A stretch of 64,000 bases of DNA, from positions 36,023-100,022 of the forward strand of contig CALYAW010000001.1 of the NCBI GenBank assembly GCA_944393685.1, in the 5' to 3' direction. The notes below the pieces were generated by a model. The model made no database searches and was not told the DNA's origin. It saw only the letters and a list, made by a program, of their open reading frames with translations. This DNA comes from an uncultured Alphaproteobacteria bacterium. GTDB taxonomy: Bacteria > Pseudomonadota > Alphaproteobacteria > RF32 > CAG-239. The position numbers and the translations under genes were made by a program. Of the stretch, positions 6,057 through 26,376 are shown one piece after another (position 1 is the stretch's first letter; each line of letters begins with the position of its first letter).

Positions 6057-6115
6057 CAAACATCTCCATTCATAACCGATTTTACAGCTTTGCAAGCGGA
6101 TTGGTTTTTATAAGA

Positions 6116-6150
6116 GAAAAGCTCTCTATTAAAGAGAGCTTTTCTATATT
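6116..6150 (+). terminator. Rho-independent terminator-like hairpin after the nitroreductase gene
   Basis: GAAAAGCTCTCT-ATTAA-AGAGAGCTTTTC perfect 12-bp stem followed by T-rich TATATT. Confidence 0.55.
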
Positions 6151-6423
6151 GGCGGAGTAGTAAATCTCAACGGTATTAAGCATACTAAAGCTTTACATTT
6201 CTCAAGCCAAATAACAGGGAAACTACAGGGAAATTTGCCTTGTTTCTACCCAATATACCATCTTAAAATCCTTGAATTTATTACCTTATAAAAACATCGC
6301 ACCTAAAATTATCAGGGAATTTAAAATTAAATACAGGGAAAATTTACAATTAGGAATTGCTTTTTGCAAAGTACAATAGTAACAATATATATTATTGATT
6401 ATTGAAAGAATTAGGAAACAAAA

Positions 6424-8184
6424 ATGAGTTTTCAAGCGCCTTTAACAATTAAAAAAGCCCTAGAAAGAATAGATAAGAGAGAACTATTACTACCTGCAAT
6501 CCAAAGAGAATTTGTATGGAGTGCAGATGATATAGAATTATTATTTGATTCTTTAATGTGCGATTTTCCAATAAACTCATTCCTTTTCTGGAAGGTAGAT
6601 AATGCTGAGAATAAAAATCAGTATAAATATTACCAATTTCTAACTAAATATATTGAATATTACCACGAAACTGCTGATTCTTTTAATACAAATGGAGTAA
6701 ATGACTTTTGTGCTGTACTGGATGGACAACAAAGACTAACAGCGCTATATCTTGGGCTAAAAGGATCTTATGCATATAAAAAACCTTATGCTCACTGGGA
6801 TAATTTAGATAACTATCCAGAACGAAAATTATATTTAGATATCTGGAAAAAATATAAAGAATATACAGAAGAAGAACATAAAAATATTGCTGAATATGAT
6901 GATGAAAGAGAATATGGCTTCTACTTTTTAACAGAACAAGAGTTTAATAACTTAGGTGGTTCCTCACGTTTCTTTAAAGTAGGAGACATTTTAACAGAAA
7001 AATACAAAGATGTATCCTGTCTCATAAAAACATTAGAAGAACAGTTTCCCAACAACAAATTTGCTCATGATACCATAGCAAAGTTATATGACATTATTTA
7101 TAACAAACCTTTAATCAACTATTATCTTGAAGAAACAGAAGATTATGATAAAGCACTAAAAATCTTTATAAGAACAAATAGCGGAGGAGAAAAATTATCT
7201 TTTTCAGATCTACTAATATCTACAATTATTTCAACTTGGACTTCCGTTGATGCAAGAACAGAATTTAATAATTTAGAAAAAGAAATAAAAAACATGGGAT
7301 TTTATAATTTTTCGAAAGAATTCATTGTTCGATGCGCTCTCCTCGCTTATAGTAAAGATATAAAATTTAAAGTTAATAATTTATCTTCTGAATGTTTATT
7401 TCAATTTGAAAAAGAATGGAATTCTGAAGGAGGGTTAAAAGCTACAATTAAAGAAGCTTTTACATTATTAAAAAATTACGGCCATAATGATAATACAATT
7501 ACATCATACAATGCAATTGCCTTAATTGTTTATTATTTAAATCACACTGGAAAAACTAAACAATTTTGTGACAAGGTGGCATATAAACAAGATAGACTTA
7601 TTATTTTAAAATGGCTAAATATTGTATTTCTTAAAAAGATATTTGGAGGCCAATCTGATTCAATTTTAAAAGAGATTCGTGATGTAATACAAAAGTCTAA
7701 ATCTCACAACTTTCCGGTAGAAGAAATAAAAGAAAAACTGGAAGGTACAAGAAAATCATTAAAAGTTGATAATGAATTTATAGAGAGCTTATTATTTGAA
7801 CAAAAGGAATCTAGATATGCCTTTCCAATTTTATCGTTGCTATATGATGGTTCAGATTATAGAGCAACAAAGCACAAAGATCACCTTCACCCCGAATATT
7901 GCTTTAGCAAAAAAGAACTTAAGAAACTAAATCTGTCAGAGGATGACCTCAAATTCTATCAGGATAAAAACAACTGGAATAGCATTCTAAATCTCCAATT
8001 ACTTTATGGCAATGACAACGAAGCAAAAAATAAAAAATCTTTAGAAGAATGGATAGAAAAAAACAATATAAATTGTAAAGAACAGCTAATCCCTTCTAAA
8101 TTTGTCGATATTAAAGACTTTCGCAAATTTATTGAAGAACGCAAAAAAATCCTTACACAAAGGCTATTAAAAGCTTTTGAATAA
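6424..8184 (+). CDS. DUF262/DUF1524 two-domain protein (GmrSD/BrxU-like type IV restriction endonuclease family)
   Basis: 586 aa. N-terminal DUF262 (ParB-like NTPase) motif CAVLDGQQRLTALYLG. C-terminal DUF1524 His-Me finger HKDHLHPEYCF. Very AT-rich, K/N/Y-rich composition unlike the flanking core genes. Confidence 0.75.
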   Translation: MSFQAPLTIKKALERIDKRELLLPAIQREFVWSADDIELLFDSLMCDFPINSFLFWKVDNAENKNQYKYYQFLTKYIEYYHETADSFNTNGVNDFCAVLDGQQRLTALYLGLKGSYAYKKPYAHWDNLDNYPERKLYLDIWKKYKEYTEEEHKNIAEYDDEREYGFYFLTEQEFNNLGGSSRFFKVGDILTEKYKDVSCLIKTLEEQFPNNKFAHDTIAKLYDIIYNKPLINYYLEETEDYDKALKIFIRTNSGGEKLSFSDLLISTIISTWTSVDARTEFNNLEKEIKNMGFYNFSKEFIVRCALLAYSKDIKFKVNNLSSECLFQFEKEWNSEGGLKATIKEAFTLLKNYGHNDNTITSYNAIALIVYYLNHTGKTKQFCDKVAYKQDRLIILKWLNIVFLKKIFGGQSDSILKEIRDVIQKSKSHNFPVEEIKEKLEGTRKSLKVDNEFIESLLFEQKESRYAFPILSLLYDGSDYRATKHKDHLHPEYCFSKKELKKLNLSEDDLKFYQDKNNWNSILNLQLLYGNDNEAKNKKSLEEWIEKNNINCKEQLIPSKFVDIKDFRKFIEERKKILTQRLLKAFE

Positions 8185-8210
8185 AAATATAATTCAACAT
8201 AGAGCAAAGA

Positions 8211-10004
8211 TCAGATTTCTTTATCTTCTTTTAAGTCAATACCAGGAAGAGATAATAAACAGCTAATTTTTGTTCTTGGATATTTTGGATTATTCAACGT
8301 TTGTAAACTAGCAGAAAAAAATACTTGTTTTCTAGCTCTTGTAACCGCCACATAAAAAAGGCTAAGAATATCAATGTAGCGACAATAAAACTTTTGATCC
8401 ATATTGCTACTTTTGTTTAAACATCTATTACAATCATCATGGTTTGCTATTTCCGGACATACACTACATAAAGATTGCCAATTAGGAAAACTATTTCGCT
8501 CCATATCAGGAAGTAAAATATAATCCCATTCCAATCCTTTTGCACCATGCACCGTTGTAACTACAATTTTTTCTTCCAATAGTTCCATAGATTGTTTTAA
8601 GGAATTATTTGATAATACATCAATTATTAGCTGATATTTTTCTTCATTATTAAGATAAATCTTATTTGTGATATCAGAAAAAAACACTTTTAACAATTTT
8701 ATTAAAGATGATATTTCATCTGTCATGTGAGCATCATAAAAAGCAGAAACTTTTTCGTAAATTTGAGATAAAAAAGATTTGCGAATAGTTTTTAATTTAC
8801 TTTTGTTATAACTATCTATAAATATTTCCAATACATCTTTATGAAATTTTTTATAAGAATAACTTTCTTCGTTGAATAATCCATTAAAATAATCAATTGA
8901 GTTACTAGCTAAATAATCCAAGATATAATTTAAATTTTTTGTTCGGGATTGAATTAAAATTGCTATTTTGCATCCTTGATAATGATTTAATAAATAAATT
9001 AATTTTGATTTTATATAGACTGCCTCATCGTGCTGTGTATAATACAAATTACAAGGAACAACCGCATTTTGAGTGATAATTATAGAATTGCCTTTACTAT
9101 TTTCTCTAATGTTTTTATCTAATTGCAGCATATTCGGATTATCTTTAAACCGATAATTTGTTGTTATTTTAAATATATTCATAGAATATTTTGCACATGC
9201 TTTTTCCATTAAACCTGGAACAGCACCTATAAAACCATAAATTCTTTGTAAAGGATCTCCCATAAACAGAAGAGAAGTTTTTTCTGTTATCAGTTGTCTA
9301 AGTATTGCCCAGCTAATACTACCAGTATCTTGAAATTCATCAATTATTATATAAGGAAATAGTTTTTGATAAAACTGTAATATTCCACTATATTGACTTA
9401 AAAGTTTCAATGTAAGTAATAATATGGCATTATATGTAATATGATTATTTGGCAGAAACTTATACTTTATTAAAGCAATATACTTCTCAAAATTTTCATT
9501 CAAGTAACCATAATTATTATCTTTGATACATTGAGAATAAGTACTTAAAAAATCAGCTTCTGACATAAGTAGCCCTATGTCTAACTGTGTTAATTCATCG
9601 GTTTCTGCATCATCATCTATAGAAAATTGGTTTAATTGCAAAAGATTATCATTTAATAAATACCCATATCGACTTAGAATTCTACGCGAAAAGCCATGAA
9701 AATTAGTAACTATGATTTTATCTTCTAAATCGTGAATATTTCTTATTAACTTAGGTACATTTTCAAAAACTTCTTTTTTTATTTTGTACGCAGCATTTAC
9801 ACCAAATGTTAATATCAAAATTTTTTTATTTACAGGAATCTTATTTGTACTAAGCAAATAAGCTATTTTACTAACTAATGTCTTTGTTTTACCGCACCCT
9901 GCTGATGCTTCAACAAGGATTCGTTTTTCTTGAGAAAATATGATATCAAGTTGCTCCCTATCATTTTGATGCATTTCTTTTAACTTATCTTCAATACAAG
10001 ACAT
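8211..10004 (-). CDS. gajB: Gabija GajB, UvrD/Rep-like superfamily-1 helicase with C-terminal Cys-rich extension
   Basis: 597 aa. Walker A ASAGCGKTKTL, motif II IIIDEFQDTG, motif V/VI VTTVHGAKGLEWDYILL. Start ATG overlaps gajA stop (TAATG) at 10004. Extra C-terminal CxxC...CxxC segment. Confidence 0.8.
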   Translation of the reverse strand: MSCIEDKLKEMHQNDREQLDIIFSQEKRILVEASAGCGKTKTLVSKIAYLLSTNKIPVNKKILILTFGVNAAYKIKKEVFENVPKLIRNIHDLEDKIIVTNFHGFSRRILSRYGYLLNDNLLQLNQFSIDDDAETDELTQLDIGLLMSEADFLSTYSQCIKDNNYGYLNENFEKYIALIKYKFLPNNHITYNAILLLTLKLLSQYSGILQFYQKLFPYIIIDEFQDTGSISWAILRQLITEKTSLLFMGDPLQRIYGFIGAVPGLMEKACAKYSMNIFKITTNYRFKDNPNMLQLDKNIRENSKGNSIIITQNAVVPCNLYYTQHDEAVYIKSKLIYLLNHYQGCKIAILIQSRTKNLNYILDYLASNSIDYFNGLFNEESYSYKKFHKDVLEIFIDSYNKSKLKTIRKSFLSQIYEKVSAFYDAHMTDEISSLIKLLKVFFSDITNKIYLNNEEKYQLIIDVLSNNSLKQSMELLEEKIVVTTVHGAKGLEWDYILLPDMERNSFPNWQSLCSVCPEIANHDDCNRCLNKSSNMDQKFYCRYIDILSLFYVAVTRARKQVFFSASLQTLNNPKYPRTKISCLLSLPGIDLKEDKEI

Positions 10005-11704
10005 TATTCGACTGCCTTAAGAATAGCGTTTTTGTAACATTCTGGAATACACACTTCGGGACAACGCTCGCCAATACACTCTCCAAATACAACAGTTTTA
10101 TTATTTTGAAAAAATGAAACATACATATATTTTAAAATTTCATCTGGATATTGGTATGAAGCGAATTGGTAATCTTGTTCTTCTAATGGAGGATTTAGTG
10201 CGTACTGCTTATTAAGTTTAGCAACAGAACTTCTTTGAATTATATTACACCTATAATCATTCTGAATAACCTTTAGAACTTCAATTCCGTCATCATTATA
10301 TAAATTAAAAACTATTTCACTATCAAAACATTTAGTTTGCGTAACAAACATATAATCTTTAAAATGTGTAATATCTTGATCTTTATTACCTCTTTGATAT
10401 TCATCATATTTATCTTTATCAAAAATAAGTATAGGTTGTATATTAAATTTCTCAAACAAATAAGCTAATGGAAAAATACTATTAGCGCCAGATGCCTTTA
10501 CGATAGCAACACCATAATCATCCAAATTGATTTTTAATGTTTTTGCAAAGCTATACAAGGCGCCCTGTTCACTATCACCTTCCACTAATATAACTTTTTT
10601 TGCAAACAAAGCCTCTTTAACGTAGGTTAGTGCTTTATACCAATGTTTTTCTTCCGATGTTATTGAAATATCGGCACCACATACAGCTTTTACTTTGGAT
10701 TCGTCTTTATATAAACGAATGATTTGTTTATAGTTATTTTCGACAATTTCTCTGGAATGGGTTGTCAGCAATATTTGAGCAGAAAAATGATCAATATCAA
10801 ATAGTTCTTTTATAATTGCATTAAAATCATCATCTTCTCCTTTTGCAATCTTTTTGATATTGTACAATATGCTTCTTTGTAAAAAAGGACTTAGATGTAT
10901 CTCAGGTTCATCAAAAGTAATAATACAGGAAAATGTTTTATTATCAGGCAATCCTTTTTTTTCAGAATATCTTAAAATTTTTTCTAAAATAGATAATAAA
11001 ATAAGTATATTAAACTGTACTCCATATCCTGAGCACTCTAAAGGAATGTTCCCTGCTTCGTATAGATCAAAAATTTTGGGTAATAATTCATCTGCATTAT
11101 TAGATACATCTGATTTTATATTAAACTTATTAAAACACGTAAGTTTTTCAAGAATCCCTATAATATAATCATTTAATGAGTTTATATTTTCTTCTACAAG
11201 ATATAATTTAGAAGCATTTTGAGATAAATACCTTCTTATAATATAATTTAAAAATGCTCCTACACCTTTACTCTTTTCAAAAGTTATTTCTGTTTTAGGA
11301 TTTCTTAAAGAATCATATACAATCACATTTAAATTATTAATTATATCTGCTCGTGAAATAGAGTTTCCACTTTCTTTGTGTCTATAGTTAATATAATCAT
11401 CAGGAGTTGCTTGCTCTGCGATAATATTAACTAAATGATGGTCGTCTGGATCAAAATAATCATCAAAAGCACCTAATTCTTCATCCGAGAGTTTTAATGT
11501 AAAAGAAATAACCAGTGGCTTACTTTTATCATAAAAATCTATTTCATCAAATTTCTTACCCGTTAATACAGATGTAATAGCATATAATAAATTTGATTTT
11601 CCAATATTGTTTTCACCAACAATTGAACAAATTTCATCAGAGAAAATCGTTGATATTCCTGACAAATTTCTAAAATTTTCAATAGTCAATTTTGATATTT
11701 TCAT
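10004..11704 (-). CDS. gajA: Gabija GajA, OLD-family ABC ATPase fused to Toprim nuclease
   Basis: 566 aa. Walker A GENNIGKSNLL, Walker B TFDEPEIHLSP, H-loop LLTTHS, Toprim VILVEGDSEQ plus DxD (FDKDKYD). Directly upstream of and coupled to the UvrD-like gene, which is the diagnostic Gabija architecture. Confidence 0.8.
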   Translation of the reverse strand: MKISKLTIENFRNLSGISTIFSDEICSIVGENNIGKSNLLYAITSVLTGKKFDEIDFYDKSKPLVISFTLKLSDEELGAFDDYFDPDDHHLVNIIAEQATPDDYINYRHKESGNSISRADIINNLNVIVYDSLRNPKTEITFEKSKGVGAFLNYIIRRYLSQNASKLYLVEENINSLNDYIIGILEKLTCFNKFNIKSDVSNNADELLPKIFDLYEAGNIPLECSGYGVQFNILILLSILEKILRYSEKKGLPDNKTFSCIITFDEPEIHLSPFLQRSILYNIKKIAKGEDDDFNAIIKELFDIDHFSAQILLTTHSREIVENNYKQIIRLYKDESKVKAVCGADISITSEEKHWYKALTYVKEALFAKKVILVEGDSEQGALYSFAKTLKINLDDYGVAIVKASGANSIFPLAYLFEKFNIQPILIFDKDKYDEYQRGNKDQDITHFKDYMFVTQTKCFDSEIVFNLYNDDGIEVLKVIQNDYRCNIIQRSSVAKLNKQYALNPPLEEQDYQFASYQYPDEILKYMYVSFFQNNKTVVFGECIGERCPEVCIPECYKNAILKAVE

Positions 11705-11734
11705 AAATTAACTCCTAGTAATAGAGAATGAAAC

Positions 11735-12739: not shown

Positions 12740-12892
12740 ATTTATACCTCTTTTTTATGCTTGCTGATATTTTTTATATTGCATGCTTGCTATAGAGTCA
12801 AGAATTTTTCTTTTAACTAATTTAATGATTGTGTTTTCAATAATCGCCAGTATAATTTCAATATATTAGTAAAAACAACATAGGAAATAGCT

Positions 12893-13606: not shown

Positions 13607-13635
13607 CGATATTTTAACTTATCTACAGCTATCTT

Positions 13636-13665: not shown

Positions 13666-13698
13666 TTATTGTTCCTTTATTGAATCAAGGAGTGTCTT

Positions 13699-16406: not shown

Positions 16407-16415
16407 GGGGCTAAA

Positions 16416-19186: not shown

Positions 19187-19379
19187 ACCAATGAACCGTT
19201 GACAATAAAAAAAGAGGTTAAGAAACTGCAATTTCCCAACCTCAGAAGAAATGTTAAAAATTAACATCTCCAATCAAGAGCTATCTTAACATTTCTCCGA
19301 ATAAAATCAATCTTTTTTTACTTATACCATTTGCGGTTTAGGTACAAATTTGTTTAAAAATTTTATAAGGGAGATTTTT

Positions 19380-20702
19380 ATGGTTAATCATCTTTCTGTT
19401 GAAAATATAAATCTTACTTCGCTAAAAACATATCATAACAACGCCAAAGTACATAATGAAGAGCAGCTTCAAGCCTTAGCGTCATCAATTAAACAATTTG
19501 GCTTTAATTCCCCCATTTTGATTGATGAGAAAAACGAAATCATTGCCGGGCATGGCCGATTAGAAGCTGCCAAAATTGTCGGATTGACAGAAGTTCCTGC
19601 CATCAGGCTAACTCATTTATCTGAAGCTCAAAAACGCGCATACCGTCTTGCTGATAACAAAATTGCTGAAAAAGGCGGATGGAATGAAGACATTCTCAAA
19701 CTTGAACTTTCTGAGTTAGAAAGCCTGTGTAATGATTTTGACATAACGATCACCGGTTTTAGTTCTGTCGAGTTAGATGTGTTGCTTGATGACACCGGCA
19801 ATTCACATAAAATTGATAAGCAGCTTAACACTGATCCTTTTGTTCCTGAAAATGAAATAATTACGCAGCCAGGAGATGTTTGGCACCTTGGCAATCATCG
19901 GATTATCTGCGGCAATTCTCAAGATGAAGAAACCTTCTCAAAATTGATGCAAACTCAAAAAGCAAAGATGGTTTTGCAAGATCCTCCTTTTAATGTTGCC
20001 ATTAACGGGCATGTTTGCGGAAGCGGCAAAACCAAGCATAAAGAATTTGCTTTTGCCTCTGGTGAAATGACTGATGATCAATTTATCAAATTTTTAGAAA
20101 CAAACTTCAAACTTTGCGCCGCTTTTTCACAAGAAGGCTCTCTTCACTATAACTTTATGGACTGGCGACATATTCTTCATATATCGGTTGCAGGAAAAAA
20201 TGTTTTTGACTCATTGATTAACCTTTGTGTGTGGAACAAAGGAACTGGCGGCATGGGCAGCTGCTACAGAAGCGCACATGAACTCTGCTTTATTTTCAAA
20301 AAAGGAAATAAAAGTCACACCAATAATGTTGAGCTTGGCAAAAATGGTCGTTATCGAACAAATGTTTGGAATTATCCCGGAGTAAATAGTTTTGGCCGCC
20401 ATCGACAAGACTTAAAAATGCATCCGACAGTAAAACCAGTAGAAATGCTTTATGATGCTATTTTAGATGTAACCAAGCGTGGTGATTTAGTTTTAGATTC
20501 GTTTTTGGGTTCTGGCTCAAGTTTAATTGCCGCCGAGAAAGCACACAGGGTTTGCTATGGTATTGAATGCGAGATGCTTTATATCGATACCACAATCAGA
20601 CGTTTTCAAAATATCTTCAAGATTGATGCTGTCCGTGAAAAAGACGGTAAGACATACAATGAATTATTGGCAGAACTAAAATCAGGAGACACTCATGACT
20701 AA
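19380..20702 (+). CDS. ParB-like nuclease domain fused to DNA N6-adenine/N4-cytosine methyltransferase (phage-type orphan MTase)
   Basis: ORF-track start at 19350 is TTG. ATG at 19380 has RBS AAGGGAG. ParB/Srx N-domain FNSPILIDEKNEIIAGHGRLEAAKIVGL. MTase motif IV VLQDPPFN and motif I DLVLDSFLGSGSS (beta-class order). Confidence 0.85.
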   Translation: MVNHLSVENINLTSLKTYHNNAKVHNEEQLQALASSIKQFGFNSPILIDEKNEIIAGHGRLEAAKIVGLTEVPAIRLTHLSEAQKRAYRLADNKIAEKGGWNEDILKLELSELESLCNDFDITITGFSSVELDVLLDDTGNSHKIDKQLNTDPFVPENEIITQPGDVWHLGNHRIICGNSQDEETFSKLMQTQKAKMVLQDPPFNVAINGHVCGSGKTKHKEFAFASGEMTDDQFIKFLETNFKLCAAFSQEGSLHYNFMDWRHILHISVAGKNVFDSLINLCVWNKGTGGMGSCYRSAHELCFIFKKGNKSHTNNVELGKNGRYRTNVWNYPGVNSFGRHRQDLKMHPTVKPVEMLYDAILDVTKRGDLVLDSFLGSGSSLIAAEKAHRVCYGIECEMLYIDTTIRRFQNIFKIDAVREKDGKTYNELLAELKSGDTHD

Positions 20703-21075
20703 TAAGACTTATGATGTTGGCTATTGCAATCCACCACAACACTCTCGCTTTCAGAAAGGGAAAAGCGGCAATCCTTCAGGGCGTCCTAAGCACAGCCGAA
20801 ATACGTATAAGCTATTGGAAGATATTTTGGAGCAGAAGGTTTCAATCGTCCAAGATGGTAAGCAAATCAAAATTTCAAAAAAGGTAGCGATTCTTTTGCA
20901 GGCAGTCAATTCTGCGGTTAAAGGCGATACAAAAGCCATTCGCGATTTATTTCCTCATTTGTTGGCTGTCGATGCCAAACAAGAAGAGAAAGAACAAAAA
21001 AGAGCTTCACTTAAAGCTGATGATTTAAGCATAATTAATAATTTTTTGCAAAATAAGGAGACCGGAAATGGTTAA
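20695..21075 (+). CDS. Phage small protein with FQKGKSGNPSGRPK motif (DUF5681-like, terminase small-subunit candidate)
   Basis: 126 aa, RBS AGGAGAC, overlaps previous stop. Motif SRFQKGKSGNPSGRPK characteristic of proteins next to terminases in Rhizobiales phages, from recall. Confidence 0.5.
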   Translation: MTNKTYDVGYCNPPQHSRFQKGKSGNPSGRPKHSRNTYKLLEDILEQKVSIVQDGKQIKISKKVAILLQAVNSAVKGDTKAIRDLFPHLLAVDAKQEEKEQKRASLKADDLSIINNFLQNKETGNG

Positions 21076-21559
21076 ATTTAAAGTAGATAAATTACTCAAT
21101 TTTTTAGAACAAATAAGTCACAATGCTTCCTCTCCAAAGCAACTACTGCAAAATCTTGCAAAAGATTTCCGGTCGTTAAGCTCAGAAGAACAAAAAGATT
21201 TTCAGCAATTATTGCTTGATATGCTTGATAAAACTTGCAGTTTTAAAAAGATAAAAATTGCTCAGGATGCCGAAAGTAAAGTAAAAAGGCCTGAATTTCC
21301 TAAAGACATTTTTGAAAAATTGCTTTGGGAATTACAGGACAAACCATCTGAATATATTGAACCTCGGCTGGAGATGATGCGAGCTTGTCTTTCTTTTCCA
21401 TCGGGCAAACAATCTAAAACAGCATCAAGCGCTATTCAAGAAATGAAGTTGAGCTTATCTCACAAAGGTTTTTCATTGGCTAAAAAACGCAACGTCTTCT
21501 TAAGATGTTTGTACGAAACATTTTTGCTTCAGGAGCTGTACAATGATATCGATGAATAA
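21068..21559 (+). CDS. Hypothetical phage protein
   Basis: 163 aa, RBS AAGGAGACCGG. Overlaps neighbours by a few bp (operon packing). Confidence 0.45.
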   Translation: MVKFKVDKLLNFLEQISHNASSPKQLLQNLAKDFRSLSSEEQKDFQQLLLDMLDKTCSFKKIKIAQDAESKVKRPEFPKDIFEKLLWELQDKPSEYIEPRLEMMRACLSFPSGKQSKTASSAIQEMKLSLSHKGFSLAKKRNVFLRCLYETFLLQELYNDIDE

Positions 21560-23069
21560 CCAAGACTTGCTTAAGGCTATTTTACGCTCAGATCTAAAAT
21601 CATTTGTCACAAAAGTGTTTTTTGATGTATCACCCTCGGCTCAATATCTTGATAATTGGCATATTGATCTTATTTGCCAAGAATTAGCACAAATGATAAA
21701 TGGTCAAGAAACGCGTTTAATAATTAACATTCCACCTCGATATTTAAAATCCATAATCTGTTCGGTTGCGCTTCCAGCTTTTATTTTGGGACATAATCCG
21801 CAAAGCTCTATTATTTGCGTAAGTTATTCGGATGATTTGGCGGCAAAACATGCTAATGATTGTCGCAGAATAATTACCTCACAATGGTATCAAGAGCTAT
21901 TTCCCGAAACAGTGTTAAGCAGCAATAAAAAATCAACATCAGATTTTGAAACTACTAAAGGGGGTGGAAGATTTTCTACCTCCATAAGCGGCACATTAAC
22001 CGGACGAGGAGCAGATTGGATTATAATTGACGACCCCATAAAACCGACAGATGCAATGTCAGACAATATCAGAGATAAAGTCAATGATTGGTATCGATCA
22101 ACTCTATACTCTCGCCTCAACAATAAGGTCGAAGGAAAAATCATTCTGATTATGCAGCGCTTACATGAAAATGATATGACCGGATTTTTGCTTGAAAGCG
22201 ATAAAAAGTTTAAGCTCATCAAACTCCCCGTCATTGCGGAAGAAGATGAAACATGGATTTTGAAAAATCAATTTACGCAAACTACGCGCACAATCGAGCG
22301 ACATCCTGGAGATCTTTTGCATCCGCAAAGAGAAAACCTTGAAACGATTAAAGAATTGCAAGATTCTTTAGGCGAATTTGCCTTTGCAGGGCAATACCAG
22401 CAAAATCCTGTTCCCCAAAGTGGTGGAATGGTAAAAAAGGACTGGATGTACTTTTATAATGAGCTGCCAGCATTTAAGCAAATCATCTTGTCTTGGGATA
22501 CGGCAAGTAAAGAGGGCTTTGACAATGCATATTCTGCATACGTCTTACTTGGTGTAGATTATAACCGCAAATATTATTTGATTGAGGCTAATCGTTACCG
22601 GCTTAATTTTCCAGAACTAGTAAAAACAGTAGATAGAATGAACGATCAATGTATTGATTTATTTAAGCAAAAGCCGTATATCCTTATTGAAGATGCCTCA
22701 TCTGGGACACAACTTATCCAAGTTTTAAGAGGAGAATATGGTCTATCTCCACATGCAATTAGAGCTGAGCAAAACAAAATTTCACGTATGCAAGCGGTAT
22801 CTCTAGCAATAGAGCAACAAAGACTATTATTTCCTAATCAAGCCGGAATATGGTATCAAACTTTTGAAAAAGAGCTTTTAACATTTCCAAAATCAAGATT
22901 TAAGGATCAATGTGATGCCTTGAGTCAAGCAGTGTGCTTTTTATCTTCAGAGATACAAAATCCACAAATCAAACCGTATATAGCCACCGGCAATCATTTT
23001 TACACTAGTGGACATCGATCAACCTATAAAGTACATCCTATGCGAGATCCAAGGAAACTAAGACATTAA
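21543..23069 (+). CDS. Phage terminase large subunit
   Basis: 508 aa. N-terminal ATPase region and C-terminal nuclease region (YNRKYYLIEANRYRLNFPELV...ILIEDASSGTQLIQVLR) typical of GTA/phage TerL of alphaproteobacteria. Confidence 0.75.
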   Translation: MISMNNQDLLKAILRSDLKSFVTKVFFDVSPSAQYLDNWHIDLICQELAQMINGQETRLIINIPPRYLKSIICSVALPAFILGHNPQSSIICVSYSDDLAAKHANDCRRIITSQWYQELFPETVLSSNKKSTSDFETTKGGGRFSTSISGTLTGRGADWIIIDDPIKPTDAMSDNIRDKVNDWYRSTLYSRLNNKVEGKIILIMQRLHENDMTGFLLESDKKFKLIKLPVIAEEDETWILKNQFTQTTRTIERHPGDLLHPQRENLETIKELQDSLGEFAFAGQYQQNPVPQSGGMVKKDWMYFYNELPAFKQIILSWDTASKEGFDNAYSAYVLLGVDYNRKYYLIEANRYRLNFPELVKTVDRMNDQCIDLFKQKPYILIEDASSGTQLIQVLRGEYGLSPHAIRAEQNKISRMQAVSLAIEQQRLLFPNQAGIWYQTFEKELLTFPKSRFKDQCDALSQAVCFLSSEIQNPQIKPYIATGNHFYTSGHRSTYKVHPMRDPRKLRH

Positions 23070-23125
23070 TAAAACTTGACTTAAGACAATGAAAGAGCCT
23101 TCATGCAACAATATGGAGGCTCTTA

Positions 23126-23383
23126 ATGTATAAAAAACCGCCTATAGCACACCAATTTCAAAAAGGAAAATCTGGAAATCCGAATGGTCGACCCAAAATC
23201 TCCGATTCGGCACTATTTGATTTGACTTCCTTGTTTTTGCAAGCGTTACTGTTAGCAAGGAACAAAGATAAAAGTTCCCGAGACAAATTAAGCAAAATAA
23301 GGGAGATATTGTATGAAAAGGAAAATTCATCTACCCAAAAACATCGAAGAGCTAAAAAAATTATCACAAAAAAAGCAGGCTAA
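23126..23383 (+). CDS. Second FQKGKSGNPNGRPK-motif protein, probably a truncated or degenerate paralog
   Basis: 85 aa. The first about 35 aa match the 20695 paralog, then diverge. The 3' 71 bp overlap the next gene out of frame. Confidence 0.35.
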   Translation: MYKKPPIAHQFQKGKSGNPNGRPKISDSALFDLTSLFLQALLLARNKDKSSRDKLSKIREILYEKENSSTQKHRRAKKIITKKAG

Positions 23384-23765
23384 GCTTTGGGAGCGTTATG
23401 TAAACAGCCCTTACAATCACCAGCTTCGAGCATTGTGGTATTATATTGCTTGCGAAAATGCCAATCTTAAGATTGAACGCAAACACCTAATTAAGTTAGA
23501 AAAATATGCTGAAAACCCGGATGAATGTATGATTAAGGTATACAAAACCAAATATAACCTTCATCCGGGGACAGAAATTACTAAAACCTTCCGCAACCAC
23601 CAATACAAGGTTATTATAAACGAAGCAGATGATTTTATTTTTGAGGGTAAACATTATAAAACTCTATCGGCGGTTGCCAAAGAAATATGTGGAATAAAAG
23701 TATCAGGCTATGACTTCTTTGGCTTAAACAACAAACGAGCATTAAAGGAGGCAACACATGACTAG
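23313..23765 (+). CDS. DUF2924-like protein (recombinase-associated)
   Basis: 150 aa. N-terminus LPKNIEELKKLSQKKQAKLWERYVNSPYNHQLRALWYYIACE. Family recalled as typically encoded immediately upstream of large serine recombinases. Stop overlaps recombinase start. Confidence 0.5.
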   Translation: MKRKIHLPKNIEELKKLSQKKQAKLWERYVNSPYNHQLRALWYYIACENANLKIERKHLIKLEKYAENPDECMIKVYKTKYNLHPGTEITKTFRNHQYKVIINEADDFIFEGKHYKTLSAVAKEICGIKVSGYDFFGLNNKRALKEATHD

Positions 23766-25389
23766 AATAAATTGTGCCGTCTATGTTCGTAAATCTACCG
23801 AAAAAGGATTGGAGCTTGAGTTTAATTCATTGCATAATCAAGAAGAAGCATGCCGAAGCTATATATTATCACAAGCCTTTAACAACTGGGAATATTTCAA
23901 AACTTATACCGATGGCGGAATTTCCGGTGGCACCATGGAACGTCCGGCCTTAAAACAAATGCTTGAAGATATTCGACATGGATTAATACAGACAGTGGTG
24001 GTTTATAAAGTCGACCGTTTATCCCGCTCAATTATGGACTTCCATAATATGATGAAAGAATTTGATAAATATGGCTGCAGCTTTGTTTCAATTACCCAAG
24101 CCTTTGACACATCGACTTCCATGGGCAAGCTAACGCTAAACATGCTGCTATCATTTGCTCAATTTGAGAGAGAGGTGTCTTCGGAACGTGTCCGTGATAA
24201 AATCCGTGCCAGTAAAGCCAAAGGCCTATGGACTGGAGGGATTCCTAAACTAGGTTATGATATTATAGATAAAAAACTGGTTATAAATTCAATAGAAGCT
24301 GAACAGGTAAAAGATATTTTTGAAAGCTATTTAAAATGTGAATCTTTGGTAGAACTTGAAACCTTTGTCCAAACCAAAGGAATTACTCATAAACATTGGA
24401 TGACAAATAAAGGTGTTGAGAAAGGTGGAAAACCATTAAAAACATCGGCCTTACATAGGTTATTGCATGAAAAAATATATTTAGGTTTAATTGAAAACAA
24501 GAAAACAGGGCAAACTTTCAAAGGACACCATCAAGCAATTATCTCCAAAGAATTATGGGAGCAGGTACAAAATAAGCTGAAAGAAAATGATAAATGCAAA
24601 AATCCCAATCATGTGCCAAATAATAATTTACTTACCGGAAAGCTGTTTAACACAGAAGGAACCGCCTTTAGCAACCAAGCAAACAGCAAAAAGAAAAGTA
24701 CAAAACGCCATTATTACGCAATAAAAGGTTTATTCCTACCAACAGAGCAAATTGATAAACTTACAAAAGATGCAATAAGCGAAATTCTTGACAGCAATCT
24801 CAATGGACTAAACAAAGACAGTTCACTTACTTTAAAGTTAATAAATTTTGCAGATATGGACTATTTAAAGCAGCGCAACTTTATCCGTAACTTTGTTAAC
24901 AAAATAATTTATCAAAAAGATCGCTTAACATTCTTTTTTAACACCAATCCTTTAATTCTATCAGCTTATACAGGCAATGCGTTAAACGAAAATAACAATC
25001 CATTAGACTTTATAGCCGACAATACCAACAATCAAATCATCTATGAAAAACCGGTAATCATCAACCGCGGACTATCAAGCAATGTCTATAACGCCGGAAA
25101 GGTTGGACTGATGAGTATCAATGATAACAATCGCCTCATTGTCCGTGCCTTAGCTTATGCTTGGAAATTTAAGAAACTCTACGAAAAGGGACTAAGTACC
25201 GATGACATAGCAAAACAAGAGAAAATGTCAAAACGAACCATCTACAAATACCTAAATCTTGCCTACCTCTCACCAAGAATAATTAATCAACTTCTCGATG
25301 GAATTTTAACCTTTAACCTTCAAACACTCTTCGAAATCGCCTCTAAAAACCTGAGCTTTGACGAGCAGGAAAAGATGTTAGCTATTTAA
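23758..25389 (+). CDS. Large serine recombinase (resolvase-family site-specific integrase)
   Basis: 543 aa. N-terminal resolvase catalytic domain AVYVRKSTEKG ... VVVYKVDRLSRS, long C-terminal recombinase/zinc-ribbon/coiled-coil region. Confidence 0.85.
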   Translation: MTRINCAVYVRKSTEKGLELEFNSLHNQEEACRSYILSQAFNNWEYFKTYTDGGISGGTMERPALKQMLEDIRHGLIQTVVVYKVDRLSRSIMDFHNMMKEFDKYGCSFVSITQAFDTSTSMGKLTLNMLLSFAQFEREVSSERVRDKIRASKAKGLWTGGIPKLGYDIIDKKLVINSIEAEQVKDIFESYLKCESLVELETFVQTKGITHKHWMTNKGVEKGGKPLKTSALHRLLHEKIYLGLIENKKTGQTFKGHHQAIISKELWEQVQNKLKENDKCKNPNHVPNNNLLTGKLFNTEGTAFSNQANSKKKSTKRHYYAIKGLFLPTEQIDKLTKDAISEILDSNLNGLNKDSSLTLKLINFADMDYLKQRNFIRNFVNKIIYQKDRLTFFFNTNPLILSAYTGNALNENNNPLDFIADNTNNQIIYEKPVIINRGLSSNVYNAGKVGLMSINDNNRLIVRALAYAWKFKKLYEKGLSTDDIAKQEKMSKRTIYKYLNLAYLSPRIINQLLDGILTFNLQTLFEIASKNLSFDEQEKMLAI

Positions 25390-25457
25390 TAGCCTAATTT
25401 ACATTAAAAATTTTTCAGAATATCATTCATTATGGCAAAAAATTTGTGGATAAGAAA

Positions 25458-26090
25458 ATGAGTGAGATTCAAAAACAATACTATCAACAACTTCAAAACC
25501 AGCTAAAGATTATGTGCAGTGCAACTATTCACGCACTAATTGATACCTATATGCTTATGTTTCCTGAGGCATACAAACAGGAAAACAAAAATACCTTTAT
25601 GTTTCGATACACTTTTTATGCTTTTCAGCAAAGAGCTATGATTTCTGTTAGAAAGTTAATTGAACCTTCAAGTAAAAACAAAATCACAATTGAATCTATT
25701 GTTAAATTAGCTACGAAACCAGATTTTTCACTTTTGTCTGAAAAAGAGAAAGCTGCATTAAAAGCTGATTACGATGAGCTATTCAACTCAGAAGAAACAA
25801 AAAGGATAAAAGAATTTCGAGATGCTTTGTGTCATAATCTTTTAGATGGAGATAAAGCAATGTATTATTATAATGATTTTATGTTCATTGTTAGTGGATC
25901 AATTCATATTTTAGAACAACTATACCTGATTGTTCTATCATCGCTCCCAACTTTTTTTGTTGAAGCCCGTAATATTGCAGAATATCTCGCATCTAATTAT
26001 TGGAAAGCTCTCGATATAGCCGCAAAAAATTCTAACAACAATCACGATATAAATGCTAAATTACAGAAGCTTCTAGATGGTGAATTTTAA
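25458..26090 (+). CDS. Hypothetical protein with candidate HEPN Rx4H motif (possible Abi-like protein)
   Basis: About 210 aa. Track start 25446 is GTG, ATG at 25458. Motif FRDALCHN (R-x4-H). Last gene of the island before tRNA-Ser. Confidence 0.35.
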   Translation: MSEIQKQYYQQLQNQLKIMCSATIHALIDTYMLMFPEAYKQENKNTFMFRYTFYAFQQRAMISVRKLIEPSSKNKITIESIVKLATKPDFSLLSEKEKAALKADYDELFNSEETKRIKEFRDALCHNLLDGDKAMYYYNDFMFIVSGSIHILEQLYLIVLSSLPTFFVEARNIAEYLASNYWKALDIAAKNSNNNHDINAKLQKLLDGEF

Positions 26091-26224
26091 GGGCTGAAGT
26101 GACTCGCCCAAATTCGGCAATGTATGTAAGTGCCAAAAATTTTGCATTTTCCAATATAAAACAAGCTTACCATAGTCATTTTGGCGATGTCAACCGCCGG
26201 CAAAGCCCGTATTTCCGCCGAATA

Positions 26225-26258
26225 CGAAAAAAGACGCTGTTCCCAAGCGTCTTTTTTA
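26225..26258 (-). terminator. Rho-independent terminator of tRNA-Ser
   Basis: AAGACGCT-GTTCCCA-AGCGTCTT with a T-run on the minus strand directly after the tRNA 3' end. Confidence 0.6.
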
Positions 26259-26264
26259 TCAAAA

Positions 26265-26356
26265 TGGCGGATGAGGAGGGATTTGAACCCCCGATACGAG
26301 TCACCCCGTATACACGATTTCGAGTCGCGCGCATTCAGCCTCTCTGCCACTCATCC
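26265..26356 (-). tRNA. tRNA-Ser (anticodon CGA), long variable arm, encoded CCA
   Basis: Reverse complement GGATGAGTGGCAGAGAGGCTGAATGCGCGCGACTCGAAATCGTG...GGGGGTTCAAATCCCTCCTCATCCGCCA. 7-bp acceptor stem, anticodon loop CT-CGA-AA, long extra arm, T-arm GGTTCAAATCC. Confidence 0.85.
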
Positions 26357-26376
26357 ACAATTTGTCTGGCTAAGTA

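Follow-up and report, generated by a model that had tools for sequence, protein, structure and literature searches.

We report that a block of 20,115 bp within the 64-kb stretch of DNA analysed here (the window) is present or absent as one unit at the 3' end of a tRNA-Ser(CGA) gene, within the 7-bp identity TGGCGGA. The block is one intact integrative element. That it is an integrated large serine recombinase (LSR) element with these exact ends we hold to be nearly certain, and it is very probably a functional member of its family rather than a product of decay. Our best reading of its nature, in which we place about even confidence, is that of a helper-dependent phage satellite (helper-dependent encapsidation) equipped with its own terminase. 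The family is widespread and apparently undescribed; we found no description of a capsid-less terminase and LSR element family in the literature.

Insertion at tRNA-Ser(CGA) and the ends of the element

Eight loci of the same species (five distinct contigs, several of them fetched from both sides) carry the empty site. In these metagenome contigs, whose flanks are 98.6-99.4% identical to the window, the nitroreductase gene, the terminator and tRNA-Ser(CGA) are contiguous, and the sequence reads ...TTTTCTATAT-TGGCGGA-TGAGGAGGG.... The window has ...TATAT-TGGCGGA-GTAGTAAATC at its left junction (core 6150-6156) and ...ATCAAAA-TGGCGGA-TGAGGAGGG at its right junction (core 26265-26271). Set against the empty site, the two junctions therefore define the insertion exactly, as a single one of 20,115 bp with TGGCGGA at each end. 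The tRNA gene is identical between window and empty sites, and only the full insertion or the empty site was observed within the species. The features at the two ends are as follows.

6117-6143, unstranded: bidirectional terminator that natively serves the nitroreductase gene and tRNA-Ser; host DNA, its hairpin directly abutting the tRNA 3' end in the empty-site contigs
6150-6156, + strand: attL core TGGCGGA, a displaced copy of the tRNA 3' end (UCC-G-CCA); the overlap between the empty-site alignments is precisely these 7 nt
6157-6185, + strand: arm of attL on the element side (P' arm), GTAGTAAATCTCAACGGTATTAAGCATAC, kept at the distal junction in nine other elements
6214-6341, + strand: three exact copies of ACAGGGAAA, at 6214, 6225 and 6333, clustered in the non-coding DNA of the left end
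26091-26264, + strand: conserved right-end non-coding DNA (alignment A4, 16 elements, mean column identity 78%)
26265-26356, - strand: tRNA-Ser(CGA) (ARAGORN; Rfam tRNA, 52 bits), its last 7 nt (26265-26271) forming the attR core

An earlier note on this DNA had offered TGGCGGA as its sole att candidate and had suggested looking for empty sites in related genomes; the eight loci supply the junctions and identify the heptamer as the att core. It owes that meaning to the empty-site comparison only, since its 10 copies in the window, against 5.3 expected, are not significant by themselves. The P' arm GTAGTAAATCTCAACGGTATTAAGCATAC occurs once in the window, with 0 occurrences expected by chance.

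The insertion has parted the native terminator from tRNA-Ser and left it at the far junction, and the element substitutes a terminator of its own. What had been taken for the tRNA's own terminator is thus the element-borne, bidirectional one at 26227-26257, the native one lying at 6117-6143. Besides this terminator, whose stem shows a compensatory change in alignment A4 (16 elements), the right end holds the P arm ATCAAAA and the invariant blocks TGACT, GTATGTAA, AGCTTACCATAGTCA and GTCAA (26091-26264). A search of the same stretch against Rfam gave no convincing match; the sole overlap, with sX4, scores 22.7 bits where the gathering score is 70. At the left end, the ACAGGGAAA repeats may be protein-binding sites, and the repeat pair AACAGGGAAACTACAGGGAAATTT is retained in related elements (L084, L103, L057).

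Base composition follows the same limits. GC content is 0.325 over 6157-26264, against 0.379 in the left flank and 0.400 in the right, where every 20-kb segment falls at 0.391-0.405; within the element, the cargo (6158-15000) stands at 0.295 and the core (15001-26264) at 0.348. Between the nitroreductase gene (5457-6056) and the tRNA lie 20 ORFs, every one of them accessory. The earlier view of an AT-rich, wholly accessory island of about 20 kb with these limits is upheld, and the finding named as contrary to it, a gene order conserved as core genome with no empty site, is not what related genomes show: empty sites exist.

Core genes and exchangeable cargo

The element carries the following genes.

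6424-8184, + strand: GmrSD/DUF262-family putative type IV restriction protein (Pfam GmrSD_N 3e-29; PADLOC HEC-05 2e-186, full length)
8211-10004, - strand: Gabija GajB, UvrD-type helicase (PADLOC GajB 5e-194; Pfam UvrD-helicase)
10004-11704, - strand: Gabija GajA, OLD-family ATPase with TOPRIM nuclease (PADLOC GajA 3e-158; Pfam AAA_15, OLD-like_TOPRIM)
11735-12739, - strand: P63C-domain protein, no known function (Pfam P63C 6e-18; phrog_2384 2e-105)
12893-13606, + strand: type II restriction endonuclease, EcoO109I family (Pfam RE_EcoO109I 5e-35)
13699-14943, + strand: C5-cytosine DNA methyltransferase with N-terminal MerR-type HTH, partner of the endonuclease (Pfam DNA_methylase 4e-86, MerR)
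15069-15389, - strand: HTH_3 (cI/Cro-type) regulator (Pfam HTH_3 6e-16; PHROG transcriptional repressor)
15510-19186, + strand: variable "early" module, from a 298-aa to a 121-aa unknown ORF
19350-20702, + strand: core ParB_N-domain N6/N4 DNA methyltransferase, or ParB-methylase (Pfam N6_N4_Mtase 1e-27, ParB_N; phrog_498 2e-120)
20695-21075, + strand: core DUF5681 protein in the small-terminase slot (Pfam DUF5681 5e-21)
21068-21559, + strand: 163-aa ORF between DUF5681 and TerL (cluster c9, 7 loci; window-type sub-family only)
21543-23069, + strand: core large terminase subunit TerL, full length (phrog_38 4e-99; Pfam Terminase_6C, Terminase_6N)
23126-23383, + strand: ORF with only an N-terminal stretch of a second DUF5681 (Pfam 2e-9, positions 2-62 of the 77-position profile)
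23313-23765, + strand: core DUF2924 protein, its gene sharing 8 nt with the start of the LSR gene
23758-25389, + strand: core LSR, the integrase (Pfam Resolvase 2e-40, Recombinase 2e-14, C-terminal HTH_7)
25446-26090, + strand: 214-aa ORF in a hypervariable slot between LSR and attR, filled by unrelated 141-214-aa ORFs in other elements

The LSR has a YVRKS catalytic motif near its N-terminus and is paired with a putative DNA-binding partner, the DUF2924 protein, at the tRNA-proximal end of the island, where the earlier note had placed such a pair (23313-25389). Relatives of the recombinase at 81-97% identity make up more than 120 protein clusters; in the IMG/VR contigs it has no relative. No family match was obtained for the 214-aa or the 163-aa ORF.

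The HTH_3 regulator, a putative master repressor, is divergent from the long rightward operon and holds the same position in 22 related loci. The early module, presumed to act in replication or recombination, comprises in order the 298-aa ORF, a nuclease of the beta-CASP metallo-beta-lactamase fold (16416-17612), an unknown ORF of 232 aa, a Bflower_2 protein and the 121-aa ORF; it is common to seven related loci (L044, L051, L052, L054, L056, L077, L084) and replaced by other modules elsewhere. No replication initiator is recognisable in the window element.

The packaging genes come next. The ParB-methylase lies beside TerL in 68 of 85 related loci, and DUF5681 directly upstream of TerL in 58 of the 85. 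By position only, DUF5681 is a candidate small terminase, for in related true phages the ParB-methylase and TerL are separated by an ORF of 129-190 aa. Against this, no match to solved TerS structures was found, and a DUF5681 protein has been reported as a virion protein of a Salmonella phage (PMC8954984). The TerL alignment contains many invariant columns, some of which look like the Walker A and Walker B motifs and the nuclease aspartates. With dN/dS of 0.016-0.038, the lowest among the genes compared, TerL is the most constrained of them; the LSR, at 0.08-0.10, is under purifying selection as well. The partial DUF5681 ORF overlaps the DUF2924 start, has a 100% identical counterpart in L047 and probably represents a recombination scar. 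As the earlier note had said, the terminase comes without portal, capsid or tail: Pfam and PHROGs recognise no such gene in the window, and the portal and capsid proteins of related phages have no tblastn match there.

The left 9 kb or so are the defence cluster that had been proposed, made up of the GmrSD-like gene, Gabija and the EcoO109I-type pair. The P63C gene accompanies the Gabija and restriction-modification block, and the same block recurs in L052 and L087. The C5-cytosine methyltransferase is 97% identical in L049, whose element backbone differs; cargo blocks are common to different backbones. In L150, a GmrSD-like gene and a 571-aa ORF form an LSR-less two-gene cassette of 3.8 kb between att arms.

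A family of capsid-less elements

The loci examined comprise the window species, 11 LSR-anchored and 80 TerL-anchored loci from several phyla. When all ORFs of 85 related loci were clustered, the only widely shared families were TerL, ParB-methylase, LSR, DUF5681 and DUF2924. The compact order methylase-DUF5681-TerL-DUF2924-LSR is found in Alphaproteobacteria, Melainabacteria and Vulcanimicrobiota; Acidobacteriota have all five core genes together in other orders, Elusimicrobia have four of them, and a Vampirovibrio-type minimal set consists of a wHTH protein, ParB-methylase, TerL, DUF2924 and LSR, with neither DUF5681 nor replication genes. Dozens of hosts, spread over several phyla, carry the capsid-less set with its ORFs intact, at TerL identities of 41-99%. 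In representative genomes of other species the backbone is 95-97% identical at the DNA level with different cargo and flanks, and megablast matches end at the element limits.

The insertion habit is likewise shared. Among 55 related loci with an LSR ORF of more than 400 aa, 38 have a tRNA no more than 2.5 kb past the LSR end, its 3' end toward the element (Ser with CGA, GGA or TGA; also Val and Ala), and both att arms are kept in elements of other hosts. Sizes estimated from the att arms run from roughly 10.2 to 17.3 kb, the far junction repeat not having been checked for each relative. In gut metagenomes there are tandem att-junction arrays at tRNA-Ser, made up of full elements, remnants and LSR-less cassettes (e.g. 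L150), all of which have the same att arms at their ends; some neighbouring arrays (L145, L157) hold truncated LSRs.

As a control, we took viral contigs whose TerL is 30-44% identical; these have portal and capsid directly after TerL. Neither protein has a match in the 85 related loci, and portal or capsid never follows TerL in the loci examined; in the most distant of them the TerL-adjacent ORFs are host or cargo genes.

Nature of the element and comparison with known systems

We propose that the LSR, probably aided by the co-translated DUF2924 protein, would integrate the element by attP x attB recombination and would also excise it. The cI-like HTH_3 repressor would silence the single long rightward operon (early/replication genes, ParB-methylase, DUF5681, TerL, DUF2924, LSR). 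Derepression by a hypothetical helper phage or by stress would lead to excision, replication and methylation of the element DNA, with which the element's own terminase would then fill helper-phage proheads; such a satellite would bring the packaging motor and not the capsid. The exchangeable defence cargo would shield the host and therefore also the integrated element.

The earlier note had spoken of a prophage remnant, as a decayed prophage or satellite-like element, and it is the satellite-like half that fits better. A temperate phage at tRNA-Ser that lost its virion genes by deletion and kept its terminase by chance is largely refuted and very improbable: the intact capsid-less set recurs in dozens of hosts and several phyla, TerL is under the strongest constraint of the genes compared, the window copy has no pseudogenes, and the element is polymorphic within its species and near-identical across species. 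The phage origin of the packaging module, seen in true phages that show ParB-methylase, small ORF, TerL and portal, speaks for decay, as do the DUF2924 and LSR pairs of real temperate phages (AcaML1, Wolbachia WO), the truncated DUF5681 copy at 23126-23383 and the truncated LSRs in L145 and L157. Packaging by host-encoded particles, from a GTA-like cluster of head and tail genes at another genomic location with no terminase specificity of its own, seems only slightly less improbable. Gene transfer agents (GTAs) are common in Alphaproteobacteria, to which the hosts of the window element belong, as GapR encoded nearby and the MAG titles indicate, and the element supplies only a terminase; against this, there are no head or tail genes within the 64-kb window, and the family also occurs in phyla for which we know of no GTA. 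It is also unlikely, if less so, that an LSR element (about 15.0-26.3 kb) and an adjacent defence island (6.2-15.0 kb) were acquired independently. The GC contrast between cargo and core, the LSR-less cassettes with the same att arms, the tandem arrays and the sharing of cargo blocks between backbones all agree with two acquisitions, which would concern origin and not present nature and would be compatible with a satellite; cargo may have accreted first and fused later. However it arose, the block today makes up one excisable unit, and the earlier division into defence cluster plus remnant does not describe it: no state other than the complete insertion and the empty site is seen in the species, there is one junction pair, and no internal att arm is left in the window.

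The most serious alternative, still rather unlikely, is a non-encapsidated island in which ParB-methylase and TerL are a methylase and an ATP-dependent nuclease serving restriction-like or anti-packaging defence, or addiction, and which spreads by transformation, conjugative mobilisation or transduction. A methylase with a nuclease follows restriction-modification logic, the elements are otherwise full of defence genes, and the Vampirovibrio-type set does without DUF5681 and replication genes. Nor did the attP-junction search yield free circles or virion DNA: the pattern matched 0 viral contigs and 33 metagenome sequences with no terminal overlap, none of them a circular contig of the element, and those examined look chromosomal (9 in contigs of more than 60 kb, 3 beside tRNA-Ser). 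However, no PADLOC model matches TerL, DUF5681 or DUF2924, the order methylase-small ORF-TerL heads the packaging operon in true phages, and among the invariant TerL columns are apparent ATPase and nuclease motifs of the kind that packaging enzymes have. Sizes of roughly 10-17 kb (20.1 kb in the window) also fit the 10-20 kb range typical of phage satellites. A 5.4-kb family fragment (LSR, DUF2924, methylase, DUF5681, TerL), which shares 99% identity with L078, has been deposited under the name "Bacteriophage sp."; it comes from human faeces in Mexico, a source matching a virome study of DNase-treated virus-like particles (VLPs) from which it probably derives (PMC8361208). It is the only family fragment in a probable VLP dataset. 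VLP preparations also hold transduced or contaminating host DNA.

Read as a satellite, the element resembles PICIs/SaPIs, P4-like elements, PLE and PICMI in its 10-20 kb size, site-specific integration, divergent repressor over one operon, replication-type module, packaging-specificity function, accessory or defence cargo and lack of tail and lysis genes. PICIs and other satellites use a tyrosine integrase and AlpA, whereas here an LSR has a DUF2924 partner, and no capsid-size redirection genes are recognised. It also has a full TerL; to our knowledge classical PICIs have TerS at most, and P4 and PLE no TerL. The cf-PICIs, with a TerS and TerL of their own, do not depend on the helper terminase for packaging. 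They are alike in this TerL but have in addition genes for capsid, portal, protease and head-tail connectors, all of them absent from the window element and the 85 related loci. The cf-PICI report describes them as encoding all proteins needed for their small capsids (10.1101/2022.09.08.507074). Acidithiobacillus phage AcaML1, whose Gp4 and Gp3 match DUF2924 and LSR (LSR 45% identical over the first 323 residues), and Wolbachia phage WO, with the same gene order (PMC10299305), share a DUF2924 gene immediately upstream of the serine recombinase, yet both are whole phages, 59-65 kb in size and equipped with portal, capsid and tail genes, in contrast to a capsid-less element of 10-20 kb. The Gabija, GmrSD-type and EcoO109I-type systems are ordinary members of their kinds, full-length HMM matches in canonical gene pairs, carried as exchangeable cargo. 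Finally, the tandem full elements, LSR-less cassettes and remnants with the same att arms beside tRNA-Ser recall the accretion of ICEs and CIMEs at tRNA genes, the latter being cis-mobilisable elements with flanking att sites; such accretion is known for tyrosine-recombinase ICEs, whereas here a serine recombinase is at work and conjugation genes are absent.

A site-specific insertion at tRNA-Ser

The accessory block at tRNA-Ser(CGA) (26265-26356, minus strand; ARAGORN) is a site-specific integrative element, marked by presence/absence polymorphism, an exact junction, a repeat derived from the target and its own recombinase near one junction. Same-species metagenome contigs, retrieved with the exact protein sequences of the nitroreductase and methyltransferase that flank the block, are 98.6-99.4% identical to the window in the flanks, and comprise eight empty-site loci (five distinct contigs) against nine occupied loci. 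In the eight empty loci the nitroreductase gene, a hairpin terminator and tRNA-Ser are contiguous, and the flank alignments of window and empty site share exactly the seven nucleotides TGGCGGA. This overlap and the junction sequences therefore define an insertion of 20,115 bp.

Junction sequences of the element and its target
Empty site: TTTTCTATAT-TGGCGGA-TGAGGAGGG
Left junction in the window (attL), core 6150-6156: TATAT-TGGCGGA-GTAGTAAATC
Right junction in the window (attR, tRNA side), core 26265-26271: ATCAAAA-TGGCGGA-TGAGGAGGG
attP junction expected for the excised element: ...ATCAAAATGGCGGAGTAGTAAATC...
attB scar expected after excision: ...TTCTATATTGGCGGATGAGGAGG...

The heptamer covers the final three bases of the acceptor stem, the discriminator and the CCA encoded in the tRNA gene. 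By itself it is not significant (10 occurrences in the window, 5.3 expected), and it is the empty sites that make it meaningful. An earlier note, made from the sequence alone, had named TGGCGGA as the only att candidate and was correct, since the empty sites place both junctions there; the comparison with genomes lacking the island that it had proposed recovered the empty site, in eight loci, and with it the exact junctions. Its impression of an AT-rich island also holds, with 32.5% G+C inside 6.1-26.3 kb against about 38-40% outside, every 20-kb window of the right flank being higher (lowest 39.1%). Within the block, the left 9 kb have 29.5% G+C and the right 11 kb 34.8%. As that note had stated, every gene between the nitroreductase (5457-6056) and the tRNA is accessory (20 of 20 ORFs). 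The tRNA-Ser does not, as it had supposed, keep its own terminator: the tRNA now precedes a bidirectional, element-borne terminator (26227-26257), which replaces the native one, now at 6117-6143 and far from the tRNA. Elsewhere in the window, about 180 bp downstream of tRNA-Gly(GCC) (32560-32742) are missing in four loci (L001, L004, L013, L014) and kept in another (L003), leaving a small ORF of 59 versus 124 aa; this strain-level indel is unrelated to the island.

A vague “island” in the window hence becomes an element with base-exact ends, a defined recombinase with its att arms, and a testable life cycle. Islands of this kind are routine findings, and this one is now fully resolved; what deserves attention is the family to which it belongs.

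Genes of the element, left to right
6424-8184, GmrSD/DUF262-like gene (PADLOC HEC-05)
8211-10004, Gabija GajB, UvrD helicase (PADLOC 5e-194)
10004-11704, Gabija GajA, ATPase-TOPRIM (PADLOC 3e-158)
11735-12739, P63C protein
12893-13606, EcoO109I-family endonuclease (Pfam RE_EcoO109I 5e-35)
13699-14943, C5 methylase with MerR HTH (Pfam 4e-86)
15069-15389, minus strand, HTH_3 regulator
plus strand, 298-aa ORF
16416-17612, plus strand, beta-CASP MBL-fold protein
plus strand, 232-aa ORF
plus strand, Bflower_2 protein
plus strand, 121-aa ORF
19350-20702, plus strand, ParB_N-N6/N4 methylase
20695-21075, plus strand, DUF5681 protein
plus strand, 163-aa ORF
21543-23069, plus strand, large terminase subunit (TerL)
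23126-23383, plus strand, DUF5681 N-terminal fragment
23313-23765, plus strand, DUF2924 protein
23758-25389, plus strand, large serine recombinase (LSR)
25446-26090, plus strand, 214-aa ORF

The cargo on the left consists of ordinary members of the Gabija, GmrSD-like and type II restriction-modification families. The adjacent gajA and gajB that define a Gabija system abut at 10004. GmrSD type IV restriction proteins have an N-terminal DUF262 and a C-terminal DUF1524 (HNH) domain; in the GmrSD-like protein here, Pfam finds GmrSD_N only (residues 11-266), and PADLOC HEC-05 matches over the full length. The EcoO109I-type endonuclease beside the C5 methylase is, judging by sequence, a putative restriction-modification pair of type II. 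PADLOC found no match among the core genes to the right of the cargo, and the 298-aa and 232-aa ORFs have no match in Pfam, PHROGs, NCBIfam, PADLOC or PDB. The MBL-fold protein is of the beta-CASP type, RNase J / CPSF-like (TIGR00649, 2e-17), and the source database also lists a faint match to anti-Pycsar Apyc1. Its role may lie in the replication module, as a nuclease, or in counter-defence, as an enzyme degrading cyclic nucleotides. One low-coverage contig with this element (L018, about 4x) has two ORFs in place of one for the recombinase (6634-8265) and likewise for the ParB-methylase (11321-12643), through assembly error or as inactivated copies in that population.

Recombinase, attachment arms and exchange of cargo

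The recombinase carries Pfam Resolvase (2e-40, residues 7-157) and Recombinase (2e-14, residues 180-277) domains and a YVRKS catalytic motif close to its N-terminus, and its best PDB match is the catalytic domain of TP901-1 integrase (3e-23). The four-cysteine zinc ribbon with the coiled-coil motif that is typical of such recombinases was not found at the level of sequence (no Zn_ribbon_recom match at E<=0.001, no CxxC pair in the whole protein); after the Recombinase domain the translation, read by eye, has at most one Cys, with a C-terminal HTH_7 instead. Serine integrases are not usually built in this way, and the difference may relate to an obligatory DUF2924 partner.

The gene sits 0.9 kb from attR, and is placed equally near the tRNA-side junction in most related loci that hold an LSR ORF of >400 aa: in 38 of 55 such loci a tRNA (Ser CGA/GGA/TGA, Val or Ala) lies <=2.5 kb past the end of the LSR gene, its 3' end facing the element. 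Integration at tRNA 3' ends is usually the province of tyrosine integrases. Serine integrases use short attP and attB sites that share a central dinucleotide and have imperfect dyad symmetry. In the elements compared here the common core is 6-7 bp, TGGCGG[A/T], flanked by conserved arms on the element side of attL (P') and of attR (P), and no convincing dyad symmetry is centred in the core of attP or attB. The P' arm, 29 nt of GTAGTAAAYYTCAACGGTATTRAGCATAC after TGGCGG[T/A], recurs in nine other elements from different hosts with unrelated host-side flanks. Estimated from both arms, the far junction repeat not having been checked in each, relatives measure roughly 10.2, 12.6, 13.3, 13.7, 14.6, 16 and 17.3 kb, against 20.1 kb in the window. 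We note that the recombinase, DUF2924 and an att system with so short a core make a compact candidate for genome-engineering tools, the target, the tRNA-Ser 3' end, being conserved across the bacterial hosts seen here.

Both ends of the element contain conspicuous non-coding DNA. On the right, about 170 bp between the last ORF and the tRNA show 78% mean column identity across 16 elements (the window and L039, L041, L044, L049, L051, L055-L057, L069, L078, L084, L087, L089, L096 and L103), with invariant blocks TGACT, GTATGTAA, AGCTTACCATAGTCA (15 nt) and GTCAA. The terminator stem shows compensatory change and is all that RNAalifold supports; the DNA outside it is invariant in sequence, with no covariation. 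A scan for consensus promoters and terminators gave nothing in this right-end DNA, and Rfam found only the tRNA in the whole island, other matches lying far below gathering scores. The stretch 26091-26226, non-coding yet conserved like coding DNA (TGACT ... AGTCA ... GTCAA), might act as a pac or ori site, be bound by DUF2924 or a small terminase subunit (TerS), or contain a promoter with a small RNA of about 120 nt ending at the shared terminator. On the left, three exact ACAGGGAAA repeats and one TCAGGGAAT lie within 130 bp of the end (6214-6341); a single further exact copy of ACAGGGAAA occurs in the whole 64 kb, and its doublet is kept in three relatives (L084, L103, L057), with other sequence in five (L069, L072, L078, L085, L096). 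Beyond this cluster, direct and inverted repeats inside the island are AT-rich chance matches, apart from two 29-nt AT-rich direct repeats (18725-18794, starting at 18725 and 18766; 41 nt apart, 76% identical), which occupy the operon's largest intergenic gap, from Bflower_2 to the 121-aa ORF, and may mark an internal promoter or origin.

A search of human-gut metagenomes found the attP-like junction (P arm, core, P' arm) in 33 contigs. The ones inspected seem to be chromosomal, nine of them lying in contigs >60 kb and three beside tRNA-Ser. Arrays of att junctions stand beside tRNA-Ser in five human-gut contigs (L150, L141, L157, L131, L145). In L150 (1099-5029), a 3.8-kb segment adjoining tRNA-Ser(GGA) runs from P' arm to P arm with no LSR, its only genes being a GmrSD-like gene, 98% identical to that of the window, and a 571-aa ORF. 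In L141 (6766-8120) and L157 (7020-8887) consecutive junctions are 1.1-1.7 kb apart, the LSRs of L145 and L157 are truncated, and three other loci (L069, L078, L096) have a second right end past the first element. By analogy with the accretion of ICE and CIME elements, which use tyrosine recombinases and whose pattern they resemble, these arrays look like an accretion of cis-mobilisable cassettes, which would explain how the low-GC defence cargo of the window could have been added. The att-bounded cassettes offer a concrete route for shuffling defence systems in gut bacteria that are not yet culturable.

The EcoO109I-type pair (methylase 97-98% identical) and P63C also occur on a different backbone, with a TerL only 50% identical, in L049 (340-1593), L087 and L052; in L087 the shared cargo takes in GajA as well. 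Defence blocks are therefore exchanged between family members. The core, too, bears a probable trace of rearrangement. Between TerL and DUF2924, the 85-aa ORF at 23126-23383 corresponds to no more than the first 60 residues of a second DUF5681 and overlaps the start of DUF2924 in another frame. It is 100% identical in a related locus (L047), and in four others (L039, L041, L044, L049) the methylase-TerL block has the opposite orientation to DUF2924-LSR. This fragment is probably the scar of a module exchange or inversion.

A capsid-less terminase family and its proposed life cycle

Public data contain >120 protein clusters that are 81-97% identical to the recombinase. In eleven contexts anchored on it (L039-L049), DUF2924 and the LSR are 78-98% identical to those of the window, and the block of ParB-methylase, DUF5681 and TerL, often with HTH_3, is 50-67% identical. 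The early module takes one of several forms: a DnaB_C/AAA_25 helicase together with DUF3768, a WYL protein and a Cas4-like nuclease; the window's combination of a beta-CASP MBL protein and family-less ORFs; or small ORFs beside an Exo_endo_phos nuclease. The cargo varies (HEPN with ResIII helicase; type I HsdR with SLFN/AlbA; EcoO109I-type restriction-modification with Mrr). The tRNA-Ser 3' end lies at the element in all but L047, where the tRNA-proximal end falls outside the locus. In L039 the 5' end of tRNA-Ser recurs in part about 150 nt past the intact tRNA (12660-12690, ...CCTCTGCCACTCATCC), suggesting that this host earlier underwent a rearrangement or an insertion 5' of the gene.

A scan of GTDB representatives (one genome per species) with a TerL alignment gave 294 relatives, of which the best 80 loci were examined with 10-kb flanks. 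Their hosts include uncultured gut Alphaproteobacteria (BRZ bins, UMGS 'Rickettsiales', Candidatus Enterousia, Candidatus Scatocola, 'Azospirillum sp. 51_20'), soil Alphaproteobacteria such as Nitrobacter vulgaris, and Gastranaerophilales, Vampirovibrionales, Vulcanimicrobiota, Elusimicrobia, Acidobacteriota and a Syntrophales MAG. When all ORFs of these 80 loci and five LSR-anchored ones were clustered all against all, the widely shared families among the 85 were TerL (83), ParB-methylase (68), LSR (60), DUF5681 (58) and DUF2924 (56), followed by HTH_3 (22) and others at no more than 8. Gene maps repeat the compact order methylase, DUF5681, TerL, DUF2924, LSR across many phyla, and none of these maps has TerL followed by a portal-like or otherwise recurrent ORF. 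In the most distant loci, the ORFs beside TerL are host or cargo genes (OEP, SBP_bac_5, SLFN/AlbA_2, SNF2 helicase).

The earlier note had read the phage module as a terminase lacking portal, capsid and tail genes, and this stands: Pfam and PHROGs find no portal, capsid, tail or lysis gene among the island's 20 ORFs. Viral contigs in IMG/VR whose TerL is 30-44% identical served as a phage control. There, portal (P22_portal or Phage_portal) and capsid genes come immediately behind TerL, which is often preceded by a ParB-methylase homologue and an ORF of 129-190 aa; the portal and capsid proteins of these contigs have no tblastn match in the 85 loci or the window. Of the two origins that the note had offered, a decayed prophage or a satellite-like element, the first fails. 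Virion genes or their remnants were not found in these searches, all core ORFs are intact, and TerL has the lowest dN/dS among the genes compared between the window and three other species' representative genomes (L050-L052): 0.016-0.038 at dS 0.13-0.16, against 0.08-0.10 for the LSR, 0.07-0.15 for DUF2924 and 0.20 for the methylase. The recurrence of the capsid-less set, the phage control and the constraint on TerL together exclude a decaying prophage, which we regard as extremely improbable, and indicate a module of phage origin retained in capsid-less form. The copies in those three genomes are 95-97% identical with different cargo, and megablast matches end at the element, which points to recent transfer between species.

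We suggest the following life cycle. The HTH_3 repressor would silence one long operon; upon derepression, the LSR with DUF2924 would excise the element, the early module would presumably replicate it, and the methylase would protect its DNA. TerL would then package it into helper-phage proheads, with DUF5681 (by its position) or the ParB domain as the site-recognition partner. A profile search of DUF5681, the candidate TerS, against PDB gave no match, Pfam assigns no family to the ORFs that related phages carry at the TerS position, and the TerL profile had no match among PDB sequences. LSR relatives were absent from IMG/VR. The attP pattern had no match in the viral contig collection, and none of the 33 metagenome matches shows terminal overlap, so that none is a circular contig; these results, and the lack of a known helper phage, leave the chances of packaging by TerL into helper proheads, in our view, evenly balanced. 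The sole hint of encapsidation is GenBank MT839917.1 (L163), a 5.4-kb scaffold from human faeces (Mexico) filed as 'UNVERIFIED: Bacteriophage sp.'. It matches L078 at 99% identity and encodes LSR, DUF2924, methylase, DUF5681 and TerL; its record fields plausibly fit a study of DNase-treated virus-like particles (PMC8361208). MT837927.1 (L165) is a second scaffold of that label and source, and both are pieces of the family or carriers of its DUF2924-LSR module.

Other accounts of the terminase have been weighed against helper packaging. The methylase and TerL might form a defence or addiction pair in an island that is not packaged, a reading supported by the minimal Vampirovibrio-type elements; against it, the identical gene order heads real packaging operons and PADLOC has no match for these genes, and we hold such a pair to be unlikely. 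Packaging by GTA-like particles of the host strikes us as highly improbable. A further alternative concerns history only, namely that defence cargo and serine-recombinase element were acquired separately. The split in G+C and the LSR-less cassettes favour accretion, but the block now has one junction pair and lacks an internal arm, and we consider two acquisitions distinctly doubtful.

Place among known elements

Site-specific insertion within TGGCGG at a tRNA end, conserved arms, terminator replacement, a constrained TerL, inter-species spread and exchangeable cargo are features of these elements. Our broader proposal, tentative and a little short of an even chance, is that the five-gene core (ParB-domain methylase, DUF5681, TerL, DUF2924, Cys-less LSR) defines an undescribed, phylum-spanning class of capsid-less, terminase-bearing elements that would target the 3' ends of tRNA genes, gather LSR-less defence cassettes between att arms and cross species in borrowed phage particles. 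In the open-access literature three papers mention DUF2924 and one mentions DUF5681, and no description of this core was found. If the proposal is true, such elements would be a new satellite type and would rank among the main carriers of defence genes in the Alphaproteobacteria and Melainabacteria of the gut that are still uncultured. Terminase genes are commonly taken as a phage hallmark. In the best 80 of 294 loci, spanning several phyla, the TerL clade of these small capsid-less elements never precedes a portal, so that annotators could mistake these loci for prophages or phage contigs; the family is already being filed as phage, in MT839917.1, MT837927.1 and an LSR cluster (P0020) labelled 'MAG TPA: integrase [Caudoviricetes sp.]'.

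By its sequence features, the element appears to be integrative and satellite-like. Its gene content is that of a generic satellite: a small integrative element with no virion genes, with genes for regulation and packaging specificity, and with a presumed replication function. If these are satellites, they would be, to our knowledge, the first with TerL but no capsid gene, and the first with a serine integrase aimed at tRNA ends. PICI and SaPI elements combine a tyrosine integrase and pri-rep with control of the AlpA or Stl type and with genes for TerS or capsid redirection; in contrast, our element uses a serine recombinase, and Pfam and PHROGs found no AlpA, primase or redirection genes in it. 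The cf-PICI carry their own capsid, portal, protease and connectors besides TerS and TerL, and the element has none of these four. It has its integration module in common with real temperate phages: the same DUF2924 and LSR pair is found as Gp4/Gp3 in Acidithiobacillus phage AcaML1, and again in Wolbachia phage WO.
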